Assembly: GCA_027448785.1 (NCBI GenBank)
Contig: DAIDMW010000001.1
Coordinates: forward strand, 1,668-65,667
Origin: Candidatus Colwellbacteria bacterium
Lineage (GTDB): Bacteria > Patescibacteriota > Minisyncoccia > UBA6257 > Colwellbacteraceae
Length of the DNA: 64,000 nucleotides
Reading direction: 5' to 3'
A model generated the notes under the pieces. That model searched no databases. It was not told the origin of the DNA and worked only from the letters and a program-made list of their open reading frames with translations. The position numbers were made by a program, and so were the translations under genes. Numbering within the stretch: the first letter of the stretch is position 1; each line of letters begins with the position of its first letter. Below, piece after piece: positions 5,538 to 28,790 of this stretch.

Positions 5538-6554
5538 ATGTTGAACAAGAGCGCTAAATTATCTCCGAATCTTGGGGCTGAAAAAGTAGAGGAGGTTCCC
5601 ATCCGCAACGGTTATGGCGAGGGTCTGATGATAGCCGGCGAAAAGGATGCTAATGTGGTGGTCCTTTGCGCCGACCTTACCGAATCGACTCGCTCGGAGG
5701 CGTTTTCCAAAAAATATCCCGAGCGCTTTTTCGAGGTAGGAGTGGCGGAACAAAATCTGGCGACCATCGCCGCCGGTTTGGGGATCTCCGGGAAAGTGCC
5801 GTTTATTTCCTCTTATGCCACTTTTTCGCCGGGAAGGAATTGGGAGCAGATCCGCACCACCATCTCTTACAACGATTCCAACGTGAAAATCGCCGGACAC
5901 CACGCGGGGATCTCAACCGGTCCGGACGGCGCTACCCACCAAGCGGTGGAGGATATCGCGACGATGCGGGTGATGGCCAACATGACGGTCGTAGTTCCCT
6001 GCGATGCCATAGAGGCGAAAAAAGCGACTATCGCCGCCGCGGAAATAAAAGGCCCGGTCTATCTAAGGTTCGCCCGAGAAAAGACGGCGGTTATAACGAC
6101 GGAAGACACGCCGTTCGAGGTCGGCAAGGCCGAGATCTTTTACCAGACGACGAAGCCGCAAGCCGCGATCATCGCCTGCGGCACCCTGGTTTACAACGCT
6201 TTGGTTGCGGCTAAGGAACTCGAAAAGGAAGGCATTAACGTCCTGGTCGTGAATAACCACACGATCAAGCCGATCGATGAAAAAAAGATACTCGAGGTCG
6301 CAAAGAAATGCGGCGCGATCGTCACGGTTGAAGAGCATCAGGTTGCAGGAGGCCTGGGCGGAGCGGTAGCCGAGGTTTTGGCCAAAGGTTCACCGACGCC
6401 GATGGAGTTTGTCGGCTTGCAGGGAGTCTTCGGCGAGTCAGGAAATCCAAAGGAGCTTATCGAAAAGTACGGAATGGGCGTGAAAGACATCAAGGAGGCA
6501 GTGAAGAAGGCGGTAAAGCGCAAAAGACAAAACACCGAAAATCCTAAATCCTAA
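5538..6554 (+). CDS. transketolase, C-terminal subunit
   Basis: Pyrimidine-binding/C-terminal TK domains (GISTGPDGATHQAVEDIA). ATG at 5538, 3 nt after the N-subunit stop. The last ~12 codons lie inside intergenic repeat element E1. Confidence 0.8.
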   Translation: MLNKSAKLSPNLGAEKVEEVPIRNGYGEGLMIAGEKDANVVVLCADLTESTRSEAFSKKYPERFFEVGVAEQNLATIAAGLGISGKVPFISSYATFSPGRNWEQIRTTISYNDSNVKIAGHHAGISTGPDGATHQAVEDIATMRVMANMTVVVPCDAIEAKKATIAAAEIKGPVYLRFAREKTAVITTEDTPFEVGKAEIFYQTTKPQAAIIACGTLVYNALVAAKELEKEGINVLVVNNHTIKPIDEKKILEVAKKCGAIVTVEEHQVAGGLGGAVAEVLAKGSPTPMEFVGLQGVFGESGNPKELIEKYGMGVKDIKEAVKKAVKRKRQNTENPKS

Positions 6555-6722
6555 TATCGAAATCCGAAACAAATTCGAAATTACAAATTAGAAACTCCAA
6601 ACCCGTTTGTGTTTCGTATTTGGAATTTGTAGTTTGTGATTTGTTTAGGATTTAGAATTTCGAGTTTCGGATTTTCGTTGTTTTACGCTTTTCGCTTTGC
6701 GCTCCTTTGTTTTGCGCTTCCC
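6515..6722. repeat. composite palindromic intergenic repeat element E1 (A-arm / AT-rich hairpin module / A'-arm)
   Basis: aaagcgcaaaag...aaatccgaaacaaattcgaaattacaaa...caaacccgtttgtg...tttcggattt...ttttcgctttgcgc. The same architecture occurs at 12 other sites. Confidence 0.8.
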
Positions 6723-12121: not shown

Positions 12122-12344
12122 AAGCGCAAAAGGCAAAGCGCAAAAGAACGAAAATCCGAAATCCGAAATACTAAATCCGAAACAAATTCGAAATTACAAA
12201 CTTCAAATTACAAACCTGCTTGTGTTTATGATTTCGGATTTGTTATTTGTGATTTGTTTAGTATTTCGATATTAGGATTTTGAGCTTTCGTTATTTTGCA
12301 TTTTGCGCTTTTCGCTTCGCGTTTCTTTGTTTTGCGCTTTTCTT
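12121..12344. repeat. composite palindromic intergenic repeat element E3 (best exemplar)
   Basis: aagcgcaaaaggcaaagcgcaaaag + long AT-rich imperfect hairpin centred on cctgcttgtg + ttttgcattttgcgcttttcgcttcgc. Confidence 0.85.
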
Positions 12345-13631: not shown

Positions 13632-13790
13632 AGCGCAAAACCAAAAGCTAAAAGCTAAAAACAGCGGCCACTAAAAAAGCGCAAAACTAAAAGCGCAAAG
13701 CTTAAAAGATCCGACGACTAACGACCTGCTGTTATTTTACGCTTTTCTCTTTACACTCGCCTTGTAGTTGTTTTTCGCTTTGCGCTTCTT
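13632..13790. repeat. intergenic repeat element E4 (contains gatccgacgactaacgacc core)
   Basis: gcgcaaaactaaaagcgcaaagc...gatccgacgactaacgacc...ttttcgctttgcgc. Confidence 0.8.
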
Positions 13791-14562: not shown

Positions 14563-14692
14563 CGAAATTCCAAATCCTAAATCAGAAATTCGAAACAAAT
14601 TTAAAAGCGCAAAGAGAAAAGCGTAAAATAACGGTAGGTCGTTAGTCGTCGGATCTTTTAAGCTTTGCGCTTTTAGTTTTGCGCTTTAAACT
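14541..14692. repeat. intergenic repeat element E5, inverted copy of E4 (core ggtcgttagtcgtcggatc)
   Basis: Reverse complement of the E4 core and arms. Overlaps the last codons of the CofE-like gene and of prfA. Confidence 0.8.
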
Positions 14693-15883: not shown

Positions 15884-15959
15884 ATTTTAGGTCATAAGAC
15901 ATGACTGCTCTTTTGTAAGTTAATAGTAAATGTAGAAACTTTTTAGTTGTTCCAGTCTA

Positions 15960-17536
15960 TTTTTGAGGATTTGATCCTGGTCCAGGATGAACGCTGGCGG
16001 CGTGGATAAGGCATGCAAGTCGAGCGAACCAAATCTTGATGAGATTCGCGGAGTAGCAATACGAAGCGGAAGGAATCTTGGCGAGGTTAGCGGCGAACGA
16101 GTTAGTAATACCTTGGTACGTACCCCGAAGACGGGCATAGTTCGCCGAAAGGCGAAGTAATTCCCGATAGTCCCCGAGAGCAATCAACGGGTAAAGGCGC
16201 AAGCCGCTTTGGGATCGGCCTAGGTCCGATCAGCTAGTTGGTGAGGTAACGGCCCACCAAGGCTATGACCGGTAGGGAGGGTGAGAGCCTGATTCCCAAC
16301 GAGGGCACTGAGACACGGGCCCTACTCCTACGGGAGGCAGCAGTCGAGAATATTCGACAATGGGCGAAAGCCTGATCGAGCGACGCCGCGTGCAGGAAGA
16401 AGTCCTTCGGGATGTAAACTGCTTTTCTACGGGAGAAAGTTCCGGCGCAAGTCGGAATTGATAGTACCGTAGGAATAAGAGGTGGCTAACTTCGTGCCAG
16501 CAGCAGCGGTAATACGAAGGCCTCGAGCGTTATCCGGATTTACTGGGCGTAAAGGGTGCGTAGGGGGCTGGATGCGTCTCTCGTAAAATCTCACCGCTTA
16601 ACGGTGATATCGCGAGGGATACGATCCGGCTAGAAGGTGCGAGAGGTTTGCGGAACGCATGGTGTAGGGGTAATATCCGTTGATATCATGCGGAACACCG
16701 AAGGCGAAGGCAGCAAACTGGCGCATTCTTGACCCTGAGGCACGAAAGCGTGGGGAGCAAAAAGGATTAGATACCCTTGTAGTCCACGCCCTAAACGATG
16801 TTGATTAGCCGTTTTGAGTATCGACCCTCGGAGCGGCGTAGCTAACGCGTTAAATCAACCGCCTGGGAAGTACGAGCGCAAGCTTAAAACTCAAAGGAAT
16901 AGACGGGGACTCGCACAAGCGGAGGAGCATGAGGTTTAATTCGATGGTAAACGAGAAACCTTACCAGGGCTTGAAATGCTAGCGGAAATCCACCAGAAAT
17001 GGAGGATGTCTCTCAAGGACCGCTAGTCCAGGTGCTGCACGGTTGTCGTCAGCTCGTGTCATGAGATGTTCCCTTAAGTGGGGTAACGAGCGCAACCCTT
17101 GTCCCGTGTTACAAGTGTCACGGGAGACCGCCCCCACATTTGTTTTGGAGCCGAGTAATCGGTTCGAAGATAAATGTGGGGGAGGAAGGAGAGGATGACG
17201 TCAAATCAGCGTGGCCTTCTGATGCCCTGGGCGACACTCATGCTGCAATGGCCGGTACAAAGGGTTGCCAAGCCGCAAGGTGGAGCTAATCCCAAAAAGC
17301 CGGCCCCAGTTCGGATTGTGGGCTGCAACCCGCCCGCATGAAGTTGGATTCGCTAGTAATCGTGGATCAGCAGGCCACGGTGAATACGTTCTCGAGTCTT
17401 GTACTCACCGCCCGTCAAGTCAAGGGAGCCGGGAAAGCCTGAAGTGCGCTTCGCGCGTATCAGGGCTGGCTCGGTGACATGGGCTAAGTCGTAACAAGGC
17501 ACGTGTAGCGGAAGCTGTGCGTGGAACAATTAAACT
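15960..17536 (+). rRNA. rrs: 16S ribosomal RNA (divergent; no linked 23S/5S within 0.5 kb)
   Basis: 5' TTTGATCCTGG...GATGAACGCTGGCGGCGTG, 515 region GTGCCAGCAGCAGCGGTAATAC, GGATTAGATACCCTTGTAGTCC, GCATGGTTGTCGTCAGCTCGTG-like, and 3' AAGTCGTAACAAGG. The 3' boundary is uncertain because no GGATCACCTCCTT is present. Confidence 0.9.
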
Positions 17537-17680: not shown

Positions 17681-17932
17681 AGCGCAAAGCGAAAAACGCA
17701 AAACTCAAAATAATTGACGGTTAACAGACTGCCGTTGTTTTTCGCTTTTAGCTTTTAGTTTTGCGCTAAATTCGAAGCTCTAAATCCTAAATTCTAAATA
17801 AATCACAAATCCTAAATTCCAAACACAAACGGGTTTGTGATTTGATGTTTGGTATTTCGAATTTGTTTCAGATTTAGTATTTCAGATTTAGAATTTTCGT
17901 TATTTTTCGCTTTTAGCTTTTAGTTTTTAATT
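17681..17932. repeat. composite palindromic intergenic repeat element E7 (downstream of 16S)
   Basis: agaagcgcaaagcgaaaaacgcaaaac...ttttcgcttttagcttttagttttgcgc + AT-rich hairpin centred on caaacgggtttgtg + ttttcgcttttagcttttag. Confidence 0.8.
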
Positions 17933-18007: not shown

Positions 18008-18403
18008 ATGCCCATTAAGAAGGTTTTGCTTGTGGAAGATGATCCATTCCTGTCTCAGCTCCTGGGAACTCGTTTGCAGCGAGCCGGTTTGGAGGTGGAT
18101 AAGGCTATGGACGGGGAGGAGGCGATGAACTACCTCAAGAACAACAAGCCCGACCTAGTTCTTTTGGACCTCATTCTTCCGAAGAAATCCGGCTTCCAGG
18201 TATTGGAAGAAATGCGCGCTGACCCCCTGGTGAAGGATGCGCCGGTGATCATTATTTCCAATCTTTCGCAGGATTCGGATGTCGCCAAAGGTAAGGAGCT
18301 GGGCGCCGTCGAGTATTACGTTAAAGCTCGAACCTCGATCGACGACTTGGTTTCGCGCATTGTTTCCCTGCTTTTGGACGGATTGAATAAAAGAGCCGTC
18401 TGA
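18008..18403 (+). CDS. single-domain response regulator (CheY-like receiver; PilH/PilG-like by context)
   Basis: VLLVEDDPFLSQLL...DLVLLDLILPKKSGF receiver motifs, 131 aa with no output domain. Sits at the head of the pilus locus. Confidence 0.75.
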   Translation: MPIKKVLLVEDDPFLSQLLGTRLQRAGLEVDKAMDGEEAMNYLKNNKPDLVLLDLILPKKSGFQVLEEMRADPLVKDAPVIIISNLSQDSDVAKGKELGAVEYYVKARTSIDDLVSRIVSLLLDGLNKRAV

Positions 18404-18474: not shown

Positions 18475-19032
18475 GTGAGTAGAGGATTTACGTTGATCGA
18501 GTTGTTGATAGTTATCGCTATCATCGGGATTCTTTCCGCGGCTGTGCTCCTGACCATTAATCCGGGGCAGCTTTTGGCGCAAGCAAGAGACTCGCGCCGC
18601 GTTGACGATCTCGCCAACTTGAATTCGGCCGTCAAGCTGTACTTAGCCGATTTCGCCACCACGACCTGGTCGGCGGCTTACAATTGTACCTCCGGCACCA
18701 CCGCTCCCGGAACGTCGACCGTCGGCGGATGCGCACAGAACCAAACGAAGACGACGGCTGGCGCCGGCTGGGTGCCGATCAATTTCGGGTTAATGACGAT
18801 CAATTCTCCGATCTCCGCGCTGCCGATCGATCCCAGTAACGGCGTTTCTTCCTGCGGCGGAGGCGAGCCGCCGAACGTCTGTTTGTACGCTTACCACTCC
18901 TCTTCGACGATCGGCTTGTACAAGCTCTACGCCAAAATGGAAAGTTCGCGCTACCAGAACAACCAGTCGGTCGGTGACGGTGGATTATACAACGCCTGGT
19001 ACGAGGTTGGCTCTAACTTATCCACACTTTAA
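18475..19032 (+). CDS. type IV pilin (class III signal, MSRG|FTLIELLIVIAIIGIL)
   Basis: Prepilin leader ending in G followed by FTLIE and a hydrophobic helix. GTG start. Confidence 0.8.
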   Translation: MSRGFTLIELLIVIAIIGILSAAVLLTINPGQLLAQARDSRRVDDLANLNSAVKLYLADFATTTWSAAYNCTSGTTAPGTSTVGGCAQNQTKTTAGAGWVPINFGLMTINSPISALPIDPSNGVSSCGGGEPPNVCLYAYHSSSTIGLYKLYAKMESSRYQNNQSVGDGGLYNAWYEVGSNLSTL

Positions 19033-19111: not shown

Positions 19112-19663
19112 ATGCCAAGCAATAAAGGATTTACTTTAATCGAGCTTCTGATCGTCATCGCCATCATCGGAATCCTGGCCGCGGCTGTGGTGTTAGTTCT
19201 TAACCCGGGACAGATTTTCGCCCAGGCTCGGGACTCCCAGCGCATCCAGGATATGTCGACGCTGAATAGCGCCATCAGCCAATGGCTGGCCGACGTCTCG
19301 ACGACCACCTGGAGCGCAGTATGGAACTGCACTTCCGGCACGGTTGCTCCGGGAACCGGAACCTGCACGACGGTAACCTCGCGCGCGGTCGACGGTACCG
19401 GCTGGGTGCCGATCAACTTCAACGCGGTTTCCAGCGGTTCGCCGCTCTCGGTTTTGCCGATGGATCCGTCGAATGGCAGTACTTGCACCAGCGGGCAAAC
19501 CCCAAACATCTGCATGTACTCCTACCACTCCAGCTCAACCTTCGGCCAATATAAGCTTTATGCCAACCTGGAGAGCTCCAAGTACCAGACCACTTACGGA
19601 GCCAACGACGGCGGCACGCTTTCCGGCTGGTACGAGGTCGGAACCAACTTAAGCGGACTCTAA
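19112..19663 (+). CDS. type IV pilin, tandem paralog (MPSNKG|FTLIELLIVIAIIGIL)
   Basis: Same N-terminal signature and shared internal blocks (TTWSA..NCTSGT..GWVPINF..LP.DPSNG) with the upstream pilin. Confidence 0.8.
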   Translation: MPSNKGFTLIELLIVIAIIGILAAAVVLVLNPGQIFAQARDSQRIQDMSTLNSAISQWLADVSTTTWSAVWNCTSGTVAPGTGTCTTVTSRAVDGTGWVPINFNAVSSGSPLSVLPMDPSNGSTCTSGQTPNICMYSYHSSSTFGQYKLYANLESSKYQTTYGANDGGTLSGWYEVGTNLSGL

Positions 19664-19830: not shown

Positions 19831-20476
19831 TTTTACTTCGCCGACCGCATTATTTGGTATATTATTGGTTATGATGTTGATCGATGCATTTGTTTTGACG
19901 CGTTTCCACTTTCTAGCGCTTCTGACCCTGATTTTTTTAGGAGTTTTTACCGCCCAGGTTCTTTATCGTTGCGGAAAAATAAAAAATACTAAAATCTTCC
20001 GCGCTTTTTTCTGGTTTTCACTAATCTTCCCCTTCCTTTACTACATTTACCTGACTATCGCCCAGTACTTTATGTGGAAAACCGAGGGTGGCTTAGGCAA
20101 GTTTTTACTGCCGCCGTATGTCGGTGCAAGTTATGTCATCGGCTACCACTTCATACGCTTTTACCTTTACTACCTCATCTCTGCGGCGGTCGGAACCTTG
20201 TTCCTGCTAGCCGCGGTCTATCTGAACAAAAAGTTCGGCCGGCGCTTTTTCGAGGATGAGGAGCCGTATCTCGGGGCCGGCGCCATATCTTTGGTCGGCT
20301 ACCCAGGATTTTTCTTCTACCTTGTTGCACTGTTTTCCAGTCAGTTGGTTTTAACCGCCGGGCGATATCTGCTTACCAGAAAAAGCGAGCGCGTTCCGTT
20401 TTATTACTTATGGTTGCCGGCCGGCGTATTTGTTATACTACTCATATATCATTACCGTTTGTTTTATTTTAGCTGA
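19802..20476 (+). CDS. polytopic membrane protein, possible short A24 prepilin peptidase (PilD-like)
   Basis: Multi-TM protein between the pilins and pilB. LIDAFV and GAGAISLVGY are loosely reminiscent of PilD Asp-containing motifs. The true start may be the MML.. Met near 19872, since the first 10 codons are repeat-derived. Confidence 0.3.
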   Translation: MFFTFSFELLFTSPTALFGILLVMMLIDAFVLTRFHFLALLTLIFLGVFTAQVLYRCGKIKNTKIFRAFFWFSLIFPFLYYIYLTIAQYFMWKTEGGLGKFLLPPYVGASYVIGYHFIRFYLYYLISAAVGTLFLLAAVYLNKKFGRRFFEDEEPYLGAGAISLVGYPGFFFYLVALFSSQLVLTAGRYLLTRKSERVPFYYLWLPAGVFVILLIYHYRLFYFS

Positions 20477-22185
20477 TGCTAAGAGTCCCCGAGGACAAGA
20501 TTAAAGAACTAGTGGTCGGCGAGGGTTTGATTACTCCCGCTGATTTCGACACCCTGCTAGCCGAGGCCAAGCGCTTGGGTCAGAGCATCGAGGATGCGCT
20601 CATCTCCCGCAATATCATCACCGAAAGCTACCTGAACAACTTCCTTTCCAAATATTTCAATATTCCTTTAGCCAACCTGACCGCCGAAAACATCAACCGC
20701 GACGTTTTAAAACTGTTGCCGGAAAGCGTCGCGCGCGAAAAACGCGTTGTCCTTTTCAACCAAGAAACTGACGGCACGCTGGACGCCGCTTTCGAGGATC
20801 CGAGCGACTTAGTAACACTGGAGTATCTGACGAGTTATCTGAAAGCGAAAATCCGGCCTTTTCTGGCTACTACCGACGATTTGAACAAAGGTTTCTCTCT
20901 TTACGGGTCGGCGGCCGCGGAAAACTATATTAAGCTGATCGAGGAAAATGTGCGCGCCTCCCTTTTGAGTAGAAGCCATGGAGAGGAGGCGGCCGGCGAG
21001 GTGCCGATAGTGGCCATCGTCGACAACATCCTTTCATACGGCTTGTCGCTGCGCGCCTCCGACATACACCTGGAAGTTCTGGAGGCCGAGGTCCTCGTCC
21101 GGTACCGCATCGACGGCATCCTGCACGAGATGTTCAAGGTGCCGAAGGAGGTTTTTCCGGCGATCGTCGCCCGCATCAAGCTCTTGGGCAGCCTAAAGAT
21201 CGACGAACACTACAAACCGCAGGACGGAAGGTTCCGCTACAAGATCGGCGAGGATGTAGTTGATGTCAGAATCTCGATTATTCCGACCTTCTACGGTGAG
21301 AAGATCGAGATGAGGTTGTTGCCGGCGACGACTAGGCCTCTTTCCTTTGCCGAACTTGGGATGATGGAGGATACCGCTAATCTCTTGACCGAGAATATCA
21401 AAAAAAGCTACGGCATGGTTCTGGTTTGCGGTCCGACCGGCTCCGGCAAGACCACGACCCTGTATTCGGTTATTAACGTTTTAAATCACCCCGAGGTGAA
21501 CATCGTCACCATCGAGGATCCGATCGAGTACAATATTAAATACATAAACCAAATTCAGGTCAACACCGCGGCCGGAATAACTTTCGCCGATGGGCTGCGC
21601 TCAATTCTGCGCCAAGACCCGAACATCATTATGGTCGGTGAGATGCGCGACGAGGAGACGGCGAGCATCGGCGTGCAGTCGGCTTTGACCGGACACTTGG
21701 TCTTGAGCTCGCTGCACACCAGCGACGCCCCGACCGCCGTTCCGCGGTTGATGGACATGAACGTCGAGCCTTATTTGGTGGCCGCGGTTTTGAACGCCGT
21801 TCTCGCCCAGCGTCTGGTCCGGAAAATCCATCTGGGCTGCATCGAGTCTTACGAACCGAGCGATCAGGAGATTAAAGCGATCCAGAGCCAAATCAAAGAG
21901 GCCGGGCTCGATCCGGAAAAATACCCGATTCCAAAACAGCTGTACCGCGGCAAGGGATGCGCCGCCGACGGTTTTACCGGATACTCCGGCAGAGTCGGCA
22001 TTTTTGAGCTGCTAAGCGTTTCAGAAAAAGTCCGCGAGCTTATCGTCAGTCCCAACTTCACTTTCGATAACCTGCGCGCACTGGCGAAACAGGAGGGAAT
22101 GGTCTCGATGTTCGAAGACGGACTGCGCAAGGCCGAGCTCGGCGTAACCACCATCGACGAGGTCCTGCGGGTGATCGGAGAATAA
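20476..22185 (+). CDS. pilB: type IV pilus assembly ATPase PilB/GspE family
   Basis: N-terminal GspII_E-like domain, Walker A VCGPTGSGKTTTLYSVIN, Asp/His boxes, and a tetracysteine-like C-terminal region. Confidence 0.85.
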   Translation: MLRVPEDKIKELVVGEGLITPADFDTLLAEAKRLGQSIEDALISRNIITESYLNNFLSKYFNIPLANLTAENINRDVLKLLPESVAREKRVVLFNQETDGTLDAAFEDPSDLVTLEYLTSYLKAKIRPFLATTDDLNKGFSLYGSAAAENYIKLIEENVRASLLSRSHGEEAAGEVPIVAIVDNILSYGLSLRASDIHLEVLEAEVLVRYRIDGILHEMFKVPKEVFPAIVARIKLLGSLKIDEHYKPQDGRFRYKIGEDVVDVRISIIPTFYGEKIEMRLLPATTRPLSFAELGMMEDTANLLTENIKKSYGMVLVCGPTGSGKTTTLYSVINVLNHPEVNIVTIEDPIEYNIKYINQIQVNTAAGITFADGLRSILRQDPNIIMVGEMRDEETASIGVQSALTGHLVLSSLHTSDAPTAVPRLMDMNVEPYLVAAVLNAVLAQRLVRKIHLGCIESYEPSDQEIKAIQSQIKEAGLDPEKYPIPKQLYRGKGCAADGFTGYSGRVGIFELLSVSEKVRELIVSPNFTFDNLRALAKQEGMVSMFEDGLRKAELGVTTIDEVLRVIGE

Positions 22186-22373: not shown

Positions 22374-23585
22374 ATGCGTTTTCGCTATGTAGCATCCGAT
22401 CCCAACGGCAGGTTGATGGAAGGGTACGTCGAAGCCAAGAGCCCGGCGGAGGTTCTGGAGTGGATGGGCGGGCAAAACTGGAAGCCGATATCGCTCAAGG
22501 CGATCCGCCAGACCGAGACCCAGAAGTTTTTCGGCGGATTGCAGCAAGGAGGGATTACCATCGCCGACCAGGTTTTCCTCACTAAATATCTGGCGCTGAT
22601 GCTTAAAGTCGGCACAGACCTTTTTAAAGCTATCGACATTCTGGTGGAAGACTTTGACAAGCCGGCGGTCAAGTCGTTTCTTATGGAAGTGCGCGACGCC
22701 CTAAGTAAAGGGCAGCCGTTTTATACCTCTTTTTCGCGCTATCCCAAGTACTTTTCTCCAGTTTTCATCAATATGGTCAAGGCGGGGGAGAGCTCCGGCA
22801 ACCTGGAAAAAGTCTTCGGAGACCTGAGTGCCTCGCTGCAAAAGCAGCAGGAGATACGCGACAAGATCCGGGCGGCGCTGATCTATCCTGTCATATTGTT
22901 GATCATGGCTTCGGTCATCCTACTGGTTATGGTGACCTTCATCCTGCCGAGAATCGCCAGCACTTTCTTGAGCTCGGGAATCAACCCGCCGATCTTCACC
23001 AAAATCGTTTTCGGCGTTGGTCTGTTTATCGGCGGAAACATCGCGATTATCCTGCCTTTGATTATCGCGGCGGCCGTCGGTTTGTGGATTTTTTTTCGTA
23101 CCGCGGGCGGCAAAAAGTTCCTCAGTCAAACGCTTTCCCGCACTCCTGTTGTCAAAGACGTCGTGGCGAAAATGGCTCTGCAACGCTTTTCCGCGACTTT
23201 TGCTTCTCTACTGCGCTCCGGCCTGCCCATCCTTGACGCTTTGGAAATAACCGCCGGCGCCTCCGGCTCCACCGAGATGGAGGCGGCCTTGGACCGCATC
23301 GCCAGGGAGGGGGTGGCCAAGGGGCTAACGATCGGCGATTCCTTCCGCCGCGAGACCGTTTTCCCGAGAGTGGTGGTCAACTTGATAACCATCTCGGAAA
23401 AAGCAGGACACATGGAAAATATCCTGGACACGCTCTCCGACTTCTACGCCGCCGAGATCGACTCCTCCATCAAGATTCTAATGTCCTTCTTGGAGCCGGC
23501 ACTTCTGCTGATAATGGGTATCATGGTCGGCGGAATCGCCTTGTCGATCATCGTTCCGATCTACCAGCTAACCGCCCAATATTAA
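22374..23585 (+). CDS. pilC: type IV pilus platform protein PilC/GspF family
   Basis: Two GspF repeats, three TM segments, ~400 aa, directly downstream of pilB. Confidence 0.85.
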   Translation: MRFRYVASDPNGRLMEGYVEAKSPAEVLEWMGGQNWKPISLKAIRQTETQKFFGGLQQGGITIADQVFLTKYLALMLKVGTDLFKAIDILVEDFDKPAVKSFLMEVRDALSKGQPFYTSFSRYPKYFSPVFINMVKAGESSGNLEKVFGDLSASLQKQQEIRDKIRAALIYPVILLIMASVILLVMVTFILPRIASTFLSSGINPPIFTKIVFGVGLFIGGNIAIILPLIIAAAVGLWIFFRTAGGKKFLSQTLSRTPVVKDVVAKMALQRFSATFASLLRSGLPILDALEITAGASGSTEMEAALDRIAREGVAKGLTIGDSFRRETVFPRVVVNLITISEKAGHMENILDTLSDFYAAEIDSSIKILMSFLEPALLLIMGIMVGGIALSIIVPIYQLTAQY

Positions 23586-23588
23586 AAA

Positions 23589-24077
23589 ATGATAAGCAAT
23601 AAGGGTTTTACTCTAATCGAGCTGCTGATAGTCATGTCGATCATGGCGATAATCGCCGTCGTCACCCTGCCTAACTTCTTCAGCTCCCGTTACCGCTACT
23701 CTTTAAATAAGGACGCCGAGGGCTTGGCCTACGGCATCCGCGCCGCCATTTCCAATTCACAGACGCAGCTGAACGCCAGCCGCTGGGGCATTCGCCTGAG
23801 CAACAACACCTCGACCGGCGGCTACTATTACCAGCTGTGGTACGGCACCTCGACCTACGCTTACGGCACACCGTCGACTCTGACGCCGCTAGACCAAGGT
23901 ATTAGTTTTTCCGGTATTGCGCTTGGCTCGGCTGTGGATATCTGCTTCGCTCAAATCAGCGGCCTGCCGGTGGACTGTTCGACCGGCCTCGGCACCTCGA
24001 CGGCGATTACTTTAAGCGCCATCGGCGGCCAGCAAACAACGGTGACGCTGAATGCCAACGGGACGGTCAACTACTAA
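23589..24077 (+). CDS. type IV pilin-like protein (MISNKG|FTLIELLIVMSIMAII)
   Basis: Class III signal peptide and N-terminal helix. Ser/Thr/Gly-rich globular part. Confidence 0.7.
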   Translation: MISNKGFTLIELLIVMSIMAIIAVVTLPNFFSSRYRYSLNKDAEGLAYGIRAAISNSQTQLNASRWGIRLSNNTSTGGYYYQLWYGTSTYAYGTPSTLTPLDQGISFSGIALGSAVDICFAQISGLPVDCSTGLGTSTAITLSAIGGQQTTVTLNANGTVNY

Positions 24078-24370
24078 AAGCGCAAAGCTAAAAGCTAAAA
24101 GCAGCGGCAAAGCGAGCGCAAAGCGAAAAACGCAAAGCGCAAAACACCGACCAGTAATTAACTAAATTCGAAGCACTAAATCCTAAACAAATTCCAAATT
24201 ACAAACTTTAAATTCCAAACCCGTTTGTGTTTGTGATTTCGGATTTGTTATTTCTGATTTGTTTCGGATTTAGGATTTCGTGCTTGGAATTTGAAAAAAA
24301 GCGCAAAGGCAAAAGAACGATTCCAACGAACTGCGTTATTGTTTTTCGCTTTTAGCTTTTAGTTTTGCAC
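24078..24370. repeat. composite palindromic intergenic repeat element E10
   Basis: aaaagcgcaaagctaaaagctaaaagc...gcgcaaagcgaaaaacgcaaagcgcaaaac + AT-rich hairpin (caaacccgtttgtg centre) + ttttcgcttttagcttttagttttgcac. Confidence 0.8.
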
Positions 24371-24409
24371 TTATTTATCAACTGTTCTCCGTTTCATCTT
24401 TATTTTATA

Positions 24410-25091: not shown

Positions 25092-26045
25092 ATGAGGCAA
25101 ACTTTTCGTTTATTTAAAACTACGAAAACCAAGACTTTGTTGTTTTTCACGATTTTCGGGGCCGCCTACCTTCTCCTGCCCCACGCCGCGCTAGCTTCGA
25201 CCAATATCGATTCCGTAAACCACTGGGCCTGGAACGACAATATCGGCTGGGTTGATTTTTACTCGACCGGAAACGTAACGGTAAACTCCACCGGCATCAG
25301 CGGCTATGCCAGCTCATCGATGGGCTACGTGGCATTGGATTGCAATACCTCGCCTAACGGCAATATTTGCGGAACCAGCAACTTTCAGGTGACCAACGAC
25401 GGAAACGGCAATCTGGCCGGGTGGGCCTGGAACGACAATATCGGCTGGATTAGTTTCTGCGGAAACGCGAGTGGCGGATCTACTTGGAACGGCTCGACCT
25501 GGGTTTGTCCTTCGAGTCCAACCTATGAAGTGACGATCGATTCCACCGGCAATTTCCAGGGCTGGGCCTGGAACGACAATGTCGGATGGTTCAGCTTCAA
25601 CTGCGCAAACACCAATACTTGCGGCACGGTCAGCTACGGCGTAAGCACCGTCTGGTCGGCGCAGGCTTCGGGCTGGCTGGAATCCTCGACCTTCGATACC
25701 GGGTCGAACGGTACGACATACAACTCCATTATGTGGAACGGAACCCAGCCTACGGGAACCAGCGTTAAGTTCCAGCTGGCGACCGCCTCATCCTCGTCTG
25801 CCAGTTGGGGAGCGACCTGCGCCAGCAACGCCTGTAACAGCTCGACTTGCGACGGAGCGTTCATCGGCCCGGACGGAACCTCCAACTCCTATTACACGCC
25901 GGCCGGGCCGGGGATACCGGTTCCGATAACCGCCTGCTACGCCAACGGCAAGCGCTATTTCCGCTACATTGTTTACCTTGAAAAGGGAGCGAACGCGACC
26001 ACCACTCCGGCGGTAAACGGGGTCGTTGTGAACTGGAGTCCATAA
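25092..26045 (+). CDS. secreted repeat protein with three ~60-aa GWAWNDN(I/V)GW(I/V/F)(D/S)F repeats
   Basis: Signal peptide (LLPHAALAST), then the WAWNDNIGW motif three times at regular spacing, then a Cys-containing S/T/G-rich C-terminal region. Embedded in the pilus locus. Confidence 0.5.
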   Translation: MRQTFRLFKTTKTKTLLFFTIFGAAYLLLPHAALASTNIDSVNHWAWNDNIGWVDFYSTGNVTVNSTGISGYASSSMGYVALDCNTSPNGNICGTSNFQVTNDGNGNLAGWAWNDNIGWISFCGNASGGSTWNGSTWVCPSSPTYEVTIDSTGNFQGWAWNDNVGWFSFNCANTNTCGTVSYGVSTVWSAQASGWLESSTFDTGSNGTTYNSIMWNGTQPTGTSVKFQLATASSSSASWGATCASNACNSSTCDGAFIGPDGTSNSYYTPAGPGIPVPITACYANGKRYFRYIVYLEKGANATTTPAVNGVVVNWSP

Positions 26046-26049
26046 GCGT

Positions 26050-26502
26050 ATGAGCGGCTTTCCTTCTAAAAAATTCCGCCGCTTCTTTCCGAATCTTCGG
26101 TCTGATTCCGGGCAAGCCAGCTTGCCGGTAATACTTCTTATTTCGGGAATATTGGTGGTCATCGCGGTGGTCGGCTCGATCATCGCCGTGGCTTTGAATA
26201 ACACCATCTTGGGAGCGCGCCTTGGCGGAAAGGCGTTGGCAGCGGCTGAAACCGGCGCCAACGACGCAATAACTCAGGTCCAGCGAGGCTGCATCCTTTC
26301 TAATACCTGCCCGAGCAGTTATACTTTAAATATCGATTACCAAACGACGGCGCAAATTACGATTACCAATAACAGCGGCATCGTAACGATCGATTCCATC
26401 GGCAATTCCGGAGGGAGGCAGAGCGAAATACAAGCTGTCCTCGGAGTCGACACCGCTACCGGATTGGTAAACATTCGTTCATTCGGCCAGGTGCCGCTTT
26501 AG
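26050..26502 (+). CDS. minor pilin-like protein (DSGQASLPVILLISGILVVIAVVG)
   Basis: Prepilin-like N-terminal helix with a non-canonical cleavage motif, 150 aa. Confidence 0.4.
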   Translation: MSGFPSKKFRRFFPNLRSDSGQASLPVILLISGILVVIAVVGSIIAVALNNTILGARLGGKALAAAETGANDAITQVQRGCILSNTCPSSYTLNIDYQTTAQITITNNSGIVTIDSIGNSGGRQSEIQAVLGVDTATGLVNIRSFGQVPL

Positions 26503-26510
26503 TTAGATTA

Positions 26511-28013
26511 ATGCCTAAAATTCAAACGCTCTTAAAGAAAATAGAGAACCTATTAGTTCCTTCGCCGTCCATCGCCGGCTTGGTTATCGACGACTACTCG
26601 TTGCGCTATCTCGAGCTCAGCCCCAAGCAGGTCGGAGCCCCAAAAAGCCAAGCTTTGCTACGCTTGCCGCCTGGCATAGTCGAACAAGGAAAAGTAAAGG
26701 ATCGCGCTAACCTGGTGGCGGCCCTGAAAGAGCTGCGTAAGCAGATTCGCGCGGATGAGGACATAATCAATGTCGTTCTCTCCATTCCAAATTTCGGCGT
26801 TTATATGCAATCTTTTGAAGTTCCGGCTTTTGCTCACGAGGATCTGAAAGACGCGGCTGATCTGAATTTGCGGATGATTTCTCCGATTGATTTCGATCAG
26901 GCTTACTCGGGCTGGCAGAGGATAAGCGAGGGGATCTCTGACGCCGGCAAGGCTAAATTTTTGGGGGCGTTCATTCAGAAGGCTGCTATCGACGAGTTGG
27001 CCGAGGTCTTGAGAGAAGCTAACTTCGGGATCGCCACCGTTGAATTCGCTAGTTTAAGCTTGATCCGCTGTTTGCGCACCGGAGGGTACCTGAGCTTGAG
27101 TGATCCGCAAGTCGTTGTCCAGCCCTCGACAAGCGGGGTCAATATGATGATTACGGAGAGCGGCAGTCTGTACTTCAACTACTTCTTTCCGTGGACTGCC
27201 GCCGCCGGCGGCCTGACTGCCGAAGCGATGATAAGCGCGATCAACCTCGGTCTGCAGCAGATGGTTAATTTCTATGCCGGCCGCGATGGCGCGCGCATTG
27301 CAAACGCCATTCTCGTAACCGGCCAGCTCGGAGATAAGATAGCTCAGGGGATAAACCAAAGTTTTCCGGGACTGAATCTAAAGAGTTTAACGCCGGCGGA
27401 GGCTAACGTTCTCCTCGGTGCGGCCGAACGCGGTTTGATCAGAAAGGAGCAGGATATCGAGATAGACTTAAGCGGACCGAGCGGCTACGAGCTGTTCCGC
27501 GAGCACAAGATCATTCAGTTCGCCGTCACCTGGCGCAATATCGTTGCTGTAATTGTGAGTTTTGTTCTGCTGCTTTTTATCGGCGCCAACGTTTTCGTCG
27601 ATCGGCTGGCGGCCAGCACTACCGCCGGGATAAGCCAGGCCAACCGCGAGATAGTCTCGCAGTCGTTAAACAACCTCGTTTCCCAGGCTCAGAACTTCAA
27701 CAACCTGGTTGCGGCCAACCAGCAGGCAAAAAGCTTGATCGCCAATTACTCGCCGCTTCTAGGCAAGATTGGCCAGCTGGCCGGCGGCCTCTCGATCCAG
27801 CTTCAGCGCGTTTCTTTCCAAGGCGTGGGGCAGCCTGGAGTCATCTCTGGCACGGCACCCAGCCAAGCGGCGACAGTCTCCTTCAAAGACGACTTGTCCA
27901 GCTTGCCGCAACTCTCCGGCCTCGACCTGCCTTTCTCCAGCATCGTGCCGACGAGCGACGGGCAAGTTTCTTTCACCATCAACTTCAATCTACAGAACTT
28001 GTCGGGGCAGTAA
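26511..28013 (+). CDS. PilM-like actin-fold ATPase fused to a PilN-like single-pass periplasmic domain
   Basis: N-terminal IAGLVIDDYSLRYLEL (PilM/FtsA-like start), a TM helix IVAVIVSFVLLLFIGANVF at about residue 340, then a Q/N/S-rich periplasmic tail. Confidence 0.45.
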   Translation: MPKIQTLLKKIENLLVPSPSIAGLVIDDYSLRYLELSPKQVGAPKSQALLRLPPGIVEQGKVKDRANLVAALKELRKQIRADEDIINVVLSIPNFGVYMQSFEVPAFAHEDLKDAADLNLRMISPIDFDQAYSGWQRISEGISDAGKAKFLGAFIQKAAIDELAEVLREANFGIATVEFASLSLIRCLRTGGYLSLSDPQVVVQPSTSGVNMMITESGSLYFNYFFPWTAAAGGLTAEAMISAINLGLQQMVNFYAGRDGARIANAILVTGQLGDKIAQGINQSFPGLNLKSLTPAEANVLLGAAERGLIRKEQDIEIDLSGPSGYELFREHKIIQFAVTWRNIVAVIVSFVLLLFIGANVFVDRLAASTTAGISQANREIVSQSLNNLVSQAQNFNNLVAANQQAKSLIANYSPLLGKIGQLAGGLSIQLQRVSFQGVGQPGVISGTAPSQAATVSFKDDLSSLPQLSGLDLPFSSIVPTSDGQVSFTINFNLQNLSGQ

Positions 28014-28548: not shown

Positions 28549-28790
28549 AAAGCGCAAAACGAAAAGCGCAAAAGGCAAAAGAACCTACATCCGACGACTA
28601 GTCGTTATTTTTCGCTTTTAGTTTTTCGCTTTGCGCTTCCTAGACCCGTCCGTGTTTCGTATTTGGAATTTGTAAATTGGAGTTTGTTTCGGATTTAGGA
28701 TTTAGTGCTTCGAATTTGCCTAGCCACTAATCTCTAACCACTAGTCTCTATTTTTCGCTTTGCGCTTTAAGTTTTGCGCTTTTAGCTTTG
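28549..28790. repeat. composite intergenic repeat element E11
   Basis: aaagcgcaaaacgaaaagcgcaaaaggcaaaag...catccgacgactagtcgtta...ttttcgcttttagtttttcgctttgcgc + half AT-rich module + ttttcgctttgcgctttaagttttgcgcttttagc. Confidence 0.8.

Follow-up and report, generated by a model that had tools for sequence, protein, structure and literature searches.

Gene content and arrangement of the pilus locus

The window, i.e. the whole 64-kb stretch of DNA analysed here, contains a pilus locus (Table 1), in which the gene of a secreted protein, hereafter called the target, is set between PilB/PilC on one side and PilM on the other. As an earlier note on this DNA had stated, the target is flanked by pseudopilin genes. 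They are PilV-like before and PilX-like after the target, and the gaps to both neighbours are 4 nt each. The PilX-like gene was labelled by motif and position only, because no family match was obtained for it. The two tandem paralogous pilins at the beginning of the locus are likely major-pilin candidates, separate from the pilin which follows PilC.

The gene directly before PilB, in a place at which one would look for a prepilin peptidase, codes for a polytopic membrane protein, and this position is conserved in many related loci. The protein displayed neither a Pfam match at E <= 1 nor an obvious GxGD-type motif; it could be a highly diverged prepilin peptidase or some other component.

The pilin and PilV-like genes are separated by a spacer of about 300 nt (24078-24372), which constitutes a long nested inverted repeat with a minimum free energy of the RNA of -103.7 kcal/mol (z = -9.7 compared with shuffles). 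No consensus of a sigma-70 promoter or an intrinsic terminator was present in this spacer; it might attenuate read-through from the pilin into the minor-pilin genes. Words of 13-14 nt from the spacer ('AAAGCTAAAAGC...', 'GATTTCGGATTTG...') are found again at roughly a dozen further sites of the window, mostly intergenic (among them ~6539-6692, 12133-12328, 13643-13774, 14602-14670, 17681-17915 and 28571-28779), which suggests a dispersed family of REP/MITE-like palindromic repeats. Just upstream of the response regulator and the pilin genes a complete 16S rRNA gene (15959-17536) was located, beside which no 23S or 5S rRNA gene was detected in the window; unlinked rRNA genes are typical of Patescibacteria.

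Table 1. Genes of the pilus locus and features of the target protein, with positions in the window.
Feature	Position (nt)	Strand	Evidence and remarks
Response regulator	18008-18403	+	
Two tandem paralogous pilins	18475-19032, 19112-19663	+	near-identical N-termini GFTLIELLIVIAIIGIL
Polytopic membrane protein, 224 aa	19802-20476	+	immediately upstream of PilB; no Pfam match
PilB assembly ATPase	20476-22185	+	T2SSE, E = 1e-114
PilC platform protein	22374-23585	+	T2SSF, E = 4e-55
Pilin with canonical N_methyl prepilin motif	23589-24077	+	N_methyl match
PilV-like minor pilin	24365/24410-25087	+	likely true start ATG 24410; prepilin motif 'GQSLAEILV'; weak N_methyl and TIGR02523 (PilV) matches
Target ORF, 317 aa	25092..26045	+	ORF real
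Sec-type signal peptide, aa 1-35	25092..25196	+	predicted cleavage ALA|ST; pre-sequence statistics of 94 members, cleavage inferred
N-terminal Trp-rich beta-barrel domain, aa 36-190	25197..25661	+	four hairpin units, predicted disulfide-stapled loops
Hairpin unit 1, aa 39-56	25206..25259	+	WAWNDNIGW at 45-53; motif, AF2 model, profile comparison
Hairpin unit 2, degenerate, aa 68-83	25293..25340	+	GYASSSMGYVALD; hhalign to units 3 and 4 (88.6-93.7%), strands in AF2 models
Hairpin unit 3, aa 105-122	25404..25457	+	WAWNDNIGW at 111-119; motif, AF2 model, profile comparison
Hairpin unit 4, aa 152-169	25545..25598	+	WAWNDNVGW at 158-166; motif, AF2 model, profile comparison
C-terminal jelly-roll-like beta-sandwich, aa 191-317, and stop codon	25662..26045	+	AF2 pLDDT ~90
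PilX-like pilin-like protein	26050-26502	+	no E5, '...AAAETG' motif; motif and position only
PilM fused to PilN/O-like C-terminal part	26511-28013	+	weak TIGR01175 (PilM) match; PF11104 on orthologs

Repeat motif and hairpin units

At aa 45, 111 and 158 the target contains the strict motif W[AS]WN[DE]N[IVL]GW (nt 25224, 25422 and 25563), and a looser form of it had no other match when all six frames of the 64-kb window were translated. The earlier note had described three WAWNDN(I/V)GW repeats at a uniform distance of ~60 aa. All three are present, but the spacing amounts to 66 and 47 aa, and a fourth, degenerate unit exists (NVTVNSTGISGYASSSMGYVALDC / GYASSSMGYVALDC, aa ~59-86, with the core GYASSSMGYVAL at aa ~70-82). 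In profile-profile comparisons based on 94 family members the three clear units were interrelated at 98-99.4% probability, and the degenerate unit was related to units 3 and 4 at 89-94% (hhalign), so that the domain has four hairpin units, not three. The approximate unit consensus is x-V-x-(V/I)-x-x-x-G-x-(L/F)-x-G-W-A-W-N-D-x-(I/V)-G-W-(I/V)-(S/D)-F-(N)-C. The motif is not due to chance, since it is conserved as WAWNDxxGW in the 120 best homologs listed, which usually possess two or three strict copies per protein.

The C-terminus of the target, V-I-I-N-W-S-P-COOH, is near-invariant, and each position of the family's C-terminal end, ...P-x-V-x-D-V-I-I-N-W-S-P-COOH, is kept in 88-94 of the 94 members. 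Neither Pfam and NCBIfam scans of the target nor Pfam scans of the 94 aligned members produced a meaningful match, and a sequence-profile search of the PDB returned 0 matches at E <= 10. The repeat, which the earlier note had failed to recognise, thus did not turn out to be a common known domain.

Signal peptide, cysteines and composition

A signal peptide, cysteine pairs in the loops between the repeats and cysteines in the C-terminal domain had all been reported before and were recovered here. Pre-sequences of the family have a median length of 30 aa and consist of about two basic residues and then an uncharged stretch with a median of ~17 aa; position -1 is Ala in 74 and position -3 Ala or Val in 73 of the 94 members, and the mature start (A/S)-T-N-I, directly after the predicted cleavage site, is conserved. 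By its -1/-3 pattern, basic n-region and uncharged stretch the signal peptide is Sec-like, and it would be cleaved from the target at this site. Identity as a type IV (minor) pilin was rejected: the prepilin motif was found in 0 of the 94 aligned members, the protein of the window likewise had no N_methyl match, and a class III signal (G-1, E+5; N_methyl PF07963) is confined to fused relatives.

The target contains 10 Cys, with pairs 84/93, 123/139 and 171/177 in the inter-unit loops and Cys 243, 248, 253 and 282 in the C-terminal half, the last three of which were found in only five of the 94 members. Across the family the loop pairs are gained and lost together, and the number of Cys in the mature part is even throughout (4, 6, 8 or 10 in 94/94 members).

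The mature protein is composed of S/T/N/G to 43% and of Trp to ~5%, and it is acidic, with a mean net charge of -8.5 (range -16 to -4) and a K+R content of 3.6% over the 94 members. This composition is of importance for the idea of a tip-located DNA receptor for natural competence, comparable to ComZ/PilA2 of Thermus or to DNA-binding minor pilins. The pili of Patescibacteria have often been proposed to take up DNA, and the presence of a non-pilin gene among minor-pilin genes is reminiscent of comZ. However, such a role is very unlikely for the target, because its mature part is acidic and nearly free of lysine and arginine; in addition, no DNA-binding family or fold was matched.

Predicted structure and fold comparisons

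AlphaFold2 (AF2) was run with the family alignment for the full-length target (mean pLDDT 89.4) and for the N-terminal domain alone (pLDDT 92.6, pTM 0.88). In the models each WAWND-x-x-GW forms a beta-hairpin with N-D-x at the turn, and the repeat region is a small meander beta-barrel, from which we infer that the four hairpins would build an 8-stranded barrel of pseudo-four-fold symmetry with short additional strands and, at one end, loops stapled by disulfides. A beta-propeller, PilY1-like or classical lectin repeat fold, as considered in the earlier note, was not found, and repeat lectins of the propeller, trefoil or prism type were rejected, as the AF2 barrel has no three-fold or multi-blade fold. 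A cell-wall/choline-binding hairpin (CW_binding_1) or a GW domain was dismissed as well: there was no Pfam match, and whereas CW_binding_1 and GW repeats are tandem aromatic hairpins of ~20 aa, the units of the target lie 47-66 aa apart and close into a barrel in the model. Nor is the target recognisable as a CBM, discoidin, trefoil or choline-binding repeat protein; F5_F8_type_C or CBM families gave no profile match in the 94 members at E <= 1.

Foldseek against the PDB returned nothing at E <= 0.001 (TM <= 0.24), and both domains hence represent a familiar topology without an identifiable homologue. On the level of the fold the N-terminal domain resembles TtoA, hemophilin, de novo 8-stranded barrels and the N-domains of OprF/OmpA, and further the barrels of HpuA, TbpB and fHbp, avidins and YceI. 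Yet the known soluble and membrane 8-stranded meander barrels (hemophilin, TbpB/HpuA/fHbp, avidins, YceI, OmpA/OprF, de novo barrels) share only 4-18% identity with the target, and none of them is made of four sequence-repeated WAWNDxIGW hairpins with disulfide-stapled loops. Matches to the Ephrin-receptor LBD, discoidin, CBM32 and a phage nozzle were obtained with the full-length model only and were absent for the N-domain model; identity of the target to these galactose-binding-like jelly rolls (discoidin/F5_F8_type_C, CBM32, Ephrin-receptor LBD) and to the podophage tail nozzle/hub is 6-16%. Since the barrel profile found no relatives among the viral contigs of IMG/VR, the resemblance to the phage nozzle is at fold level only, and no sign of phage receptor-binding proteins using the barrel domain was seen in these contigs.

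The Trp-rich barrel could also be cargo- or membrane-active at the pilus tip, either as a lipocalin-, avidin- or hemophilin-like carrier of a hydrophobic host molecule or as an aromatic-surfaced binder of the host membrane, which we regard as distinctly improbable. Scavenging of lipids or isoprenoids by the barrel would be in keeping with the lipid auxotrophy of Patescibacteria. If either of the two readings applied, the cassette would represent a functional class not known before among the tip proteins of type IV pili, and one that is universal in Paceibacteria.

Distribution and gene neighbourhood

All public copies, including one with the exact sequence of the window, are named 'hypothetical protein' and originate from metagenome-assembled genomes (MAGs) of Patescibacteria. 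No description of the target family was found in the literature searched, the nearest being the work on PilX1/PilX2 of Saccharibacteria. A word-indexed search retrieved 706 full-length relatives and a barrel-profile search 1,793. When 1.84 billion cluster representatives (50% identity) were searched exhaustively by HMMER with the barrel profile, 6,811 clusters passed a limit of E <= 1e-3 and 2,761 one of E <= 1e-10. Relatives are encoded in at least 479 species genomes of GTDB. The best 80 of these belong to Patescibacteria, with Colwell-, Lipton-, Harrison-, Jorgensen- and Wolfebacteria and Paceibacterota among the named groups, except for one MAG labelled Spirochaetia, the contig of which (L086) is probably mis-binned.

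When the pil proteins of the window were used as single-sequence phmmer queries on the 80 GTDB loci, a same-strand pil gene (PilV-like, pilin, PilC or PilB) was detected upstream of the target in 55 of 64 loci with enough flank, and PilX-like or PilM(NO) downstream in 49 of 63. The usual full order across Patescibacteria is PilB-PilC-pilin-PilV-like-TARGET-PilX-like-PilM(NO), with the PilX-like protein directly downstream of the target in most loci; some genomes show a reduced order of TARGET-PilX-like-PilM only. Co-occurrence with minor pilins, which the earlier note had named as a check, is therefore found in related genomes, although a minority of homologs does lie outside pilus loci. This paralogous subgroup (loci L043, L061, L076, L079, L083 and L004/L005) adjoins cysS-dnaB-recR or CorA without a recognisable pil neighbour, includes two-barrel forms of ~450 aa and 'AWxDxxGWWDFY' forms, and may have a different function. 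Its existence could be taken to indicate that the target is an unrelated secreted protein merely located in a pilus locus, but with a gene order kept across dozens of divergent genomes and with recurring fusions to the neighbouring pilin, as described below, this is hardly conceivable.

Fusions and domain partners

In six loci (L023, L026, L037, L051, L057 and L065) a PilV-like prepilin and the mature target are encoded as a single ORF. All six open with a prepilin motif (GQSLIE..., N_methyl 21-25 bits), and their PilV-like part is 28-35% identical to the PilV-like protein of the window. The junction is situated at aa 13-45 of the target, mostly at 28-38, which places it at or close to the cleavage site predicted for the signal peptide, and in blastp the fusion proteins matched the PilV-like protein and the target of the window end to end. 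A separate PilV-like gene was not found in five of the six loci (all but L065). Two more loci (L025 and L030) encode a PilV-like pilin which carries the barrel alone, and here a separate full-length copy is also present. N_methyl was at or above the Pfam cut-off in three of the eight PilV-like fusions, L023 and L025 each reaching 25.2 bits. Assembly artefacts are an unlikely source of the fusions, because they recur in independent assemblies.

Of the 150 best representatives of the 50%-identity clusters, 32 carry a prepilin motif at their start, 70 share the architecture of the window and 32 bear other N-terminal extensions. The extensions comprise Laminin_G_3 (ConA-like lectin), DUF2341, NHL/Vgb_lyase-like propellers, PKD, TSP3 and one or two extra barrels, and the cassette of barrel and jelly roll almost always occupies the C-terminal position. 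In giant relatives, which reach 1,545 and 2,159 aa, the cassette occurs together with Vgb_lyase/NHL propellers, DUF2341, Laminin_G_3 and an Lcl_C domain (L069 4161-8798; L013 6165-8801; L086 761-2602; P0225; P0316); nine motif copies were counted in L086, consistent with three barrels.

The recurrent gene order and the natural fusions behind a PilV-like prepilin strongly support the pilus association of the target that had been proposed from its position, and since many relatives have the module joined directly to the neighbouring minor pilin, the protein is almost certainly carried on the pilus. Because fusion recurs and the gene is kept strictly between two minor pilins, the module can be assumed to work on or with the PilV-like minor pilin. 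The fusions also concern the suggestion that the target is an envelope part of the pilus machine, e.g. a collar or anchor embedded in the wall or S-layer around the pilus of a secretin-less monoderm. Such a part would agree with a Sec signal in place of a prepilin signal, with the high conservation of the target, with PilM(NO) close by and with the finding of eight-stranded barrels of similar topology in envelope proteins. Nevertheless we consider it improbable: once attached to the C-terminal end of a prepilin, the module forms part of a subunit that is drawn out of the membrane into the fibre, which is hard to square with a static collar, and no peptidoglycan- or S-layer-binding family was matched.

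Conservation and proposed function

Across 30 complete loci median identity was 46% for the target, a value biased upward by the choice of loci according to their similarity to the target, compared with 30-34% for the pilins, 31% for PilM(NO), 51% for PilC and 57% for PilB. Within the target the barrel is the most conserved part (63% identical, C-domain 49%). No other extracellular protein of the Paceibacteria pilus operon is as well conserved as the target family. As it is more conserved than the pilins, a structural cap or priming role or a widely shared ligand fits better than a host-specific adhesin.

We lean, with some reserve, towards the reading that the target is a Sec-exported non-pilin subunit of the pilus, which docks on the PilV-like minor pilin, is carried at the tip and contacts a conserved ligand, most likely a glycan. 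After Sec export and cleavage of the signal peptide, oxidative folding of the mature part would give rise to the Trp-rich barrel and the jelly-roll-like beta-sandwich; the protein would then dock non-covalently on the head of the adjacent PilV-like minor pilin, be extruded together with the minor-pilin priming/tip complex and finally act as a distal exposed module contacting a ligand, most likely a glycan, on the surface of a host or partner cell. For T4aP it is established that minor pilins form a priming complex which ends at the pilus tip (PMC7541494), and in the pili of Saccharibacteria the lectin-like minor pilins PilX1 and PilX2 were described without PilD signals (PMC12206443). A function as adhesin or lectin, or another ligand-binding role, is suggested by the jelly-roll-like C-domain with its fold-level CBM resemblance and by lectin-type fusion partners (Laminin_G_3, propellers, PKD). 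The extracellular signatures (AxA-type signal peptide, even Cys numbers with co-varying pairs, 43% S/T/N/G, charge about -8), the jelly-roll-like C-domain, the lectin-type companions and the precedent of Saccharibacteria favour a binding role.

Several points stand against this proposal. High conservation of the target is unlike that of a rapidly evolving host-specific adhesin, the subgroup of homologs near cysS-dnaB-recR or CorA lacks recognisable pil genes, and a monoderm must capture a freely secreted protein before it diffuses away; we know of no mechanism by which a freely secreted pilus protein is captured in a monoderm.

The conservation data bear equally on the possibility that the target is a purely structural cap or priming factor of the minor-pilin complex, similar to the C-terminal domain of PilY1 or to GspK, which would be needed to initiate or stabilise assembly and would itself bind no ligand, adhesion being conferred by other modules. 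In line with this, conservation of the target comes near to that of PilC and exceeds that of the pilins, the barrel is its most conserved part, the extreme C-terminus NWSP is near-invariant, and the long relatives keep the cassette C-terminal and add variable lectin or propeller modules N-terminally, mirroring the conserved C-domain and variable N-domain of PilY1. On the other hand, the form of 317 aa possesses no other exposed module, which would leave nothing else in the locus for adhesion, the jelly-roll-like C-domain resembles binding modules, and the conservation estimate is biased by the choice of loci. A purely structural part thus appears unlikely, albeit far from implausible, and a subunit that binds a ligand at the tip is the interpretation preferred here.

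Comparison with known systems and significance

Patescibacteria (CPR) account for a large share of bacterial diversity and live attached to other cells. To our knowledge, type IV pili are the only attachment machine which nearly all of them encode, and components of the business end of these pili are known to us only from two systems of Saccharibacteria. Being abundant, the best-conserved extracellular protein and repeatedly fused to the neighbouring minor pilin, the target is the obvious candidate for the conserved tip or cap module. Its family offers a concrete object for structure determination, for glycan- and host-binding assays and for antibodies to image pili in uncultured consortia. 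Furthermore, two new domain families emerge for possible Pfam entry, the four-hairpin Trp barrel and the jelly-roll-like domain ending in NWSP.

With PilY1 and Neisseria PilC the target shares a Sec signal in place of a prepilin signal, a gene position in a minor-pilin operon beside a PilX-type gene, the conservation of a C-terminal cassette to which larger relatives add varying adhesin modules at the N-terminus, and a presumed role in the priming/tip complex. In contrast to PilY1, which comprises a C-terminal modified seven-bladed propeller with a calcium site, it consists of a small barrel and a jelly-roll-like domain, has a much smaller size (317 aa) and is found in monoderm-like Patescibacteria. 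Membership in the PilY1 family was rejected, as there is neither a sequence or profile match (PF05567) nor a propeller.

Modular minor pilins, such as PilB/PilC of Streptococcus sanguinis and the jelly-roll PilX1 and propeller PilX2 of Saccharibacteria (PMC12206443), resemble the target family in presenting a binding-type module on a minor pilin: about one fifth of the best cluster representatives of the family are a prepilin joined to the cassette, and Laminin_G_3 modules co-occur. Unlike these pilins, the target of the window is a separate Sec-secreted polypeptide without a class III signal (0/94), and the four-hairpin Trp barrel is not among the modules described for them. The target accordingly seems to be a functional analogue, not a homologue, of PilY1 and of the modules that modular minor pilins carry at their C-terminus, and we regard it as a tip or accessory module which is uncharacterised but very widespread and is distinguished by its four-hairpin Trp barrel.
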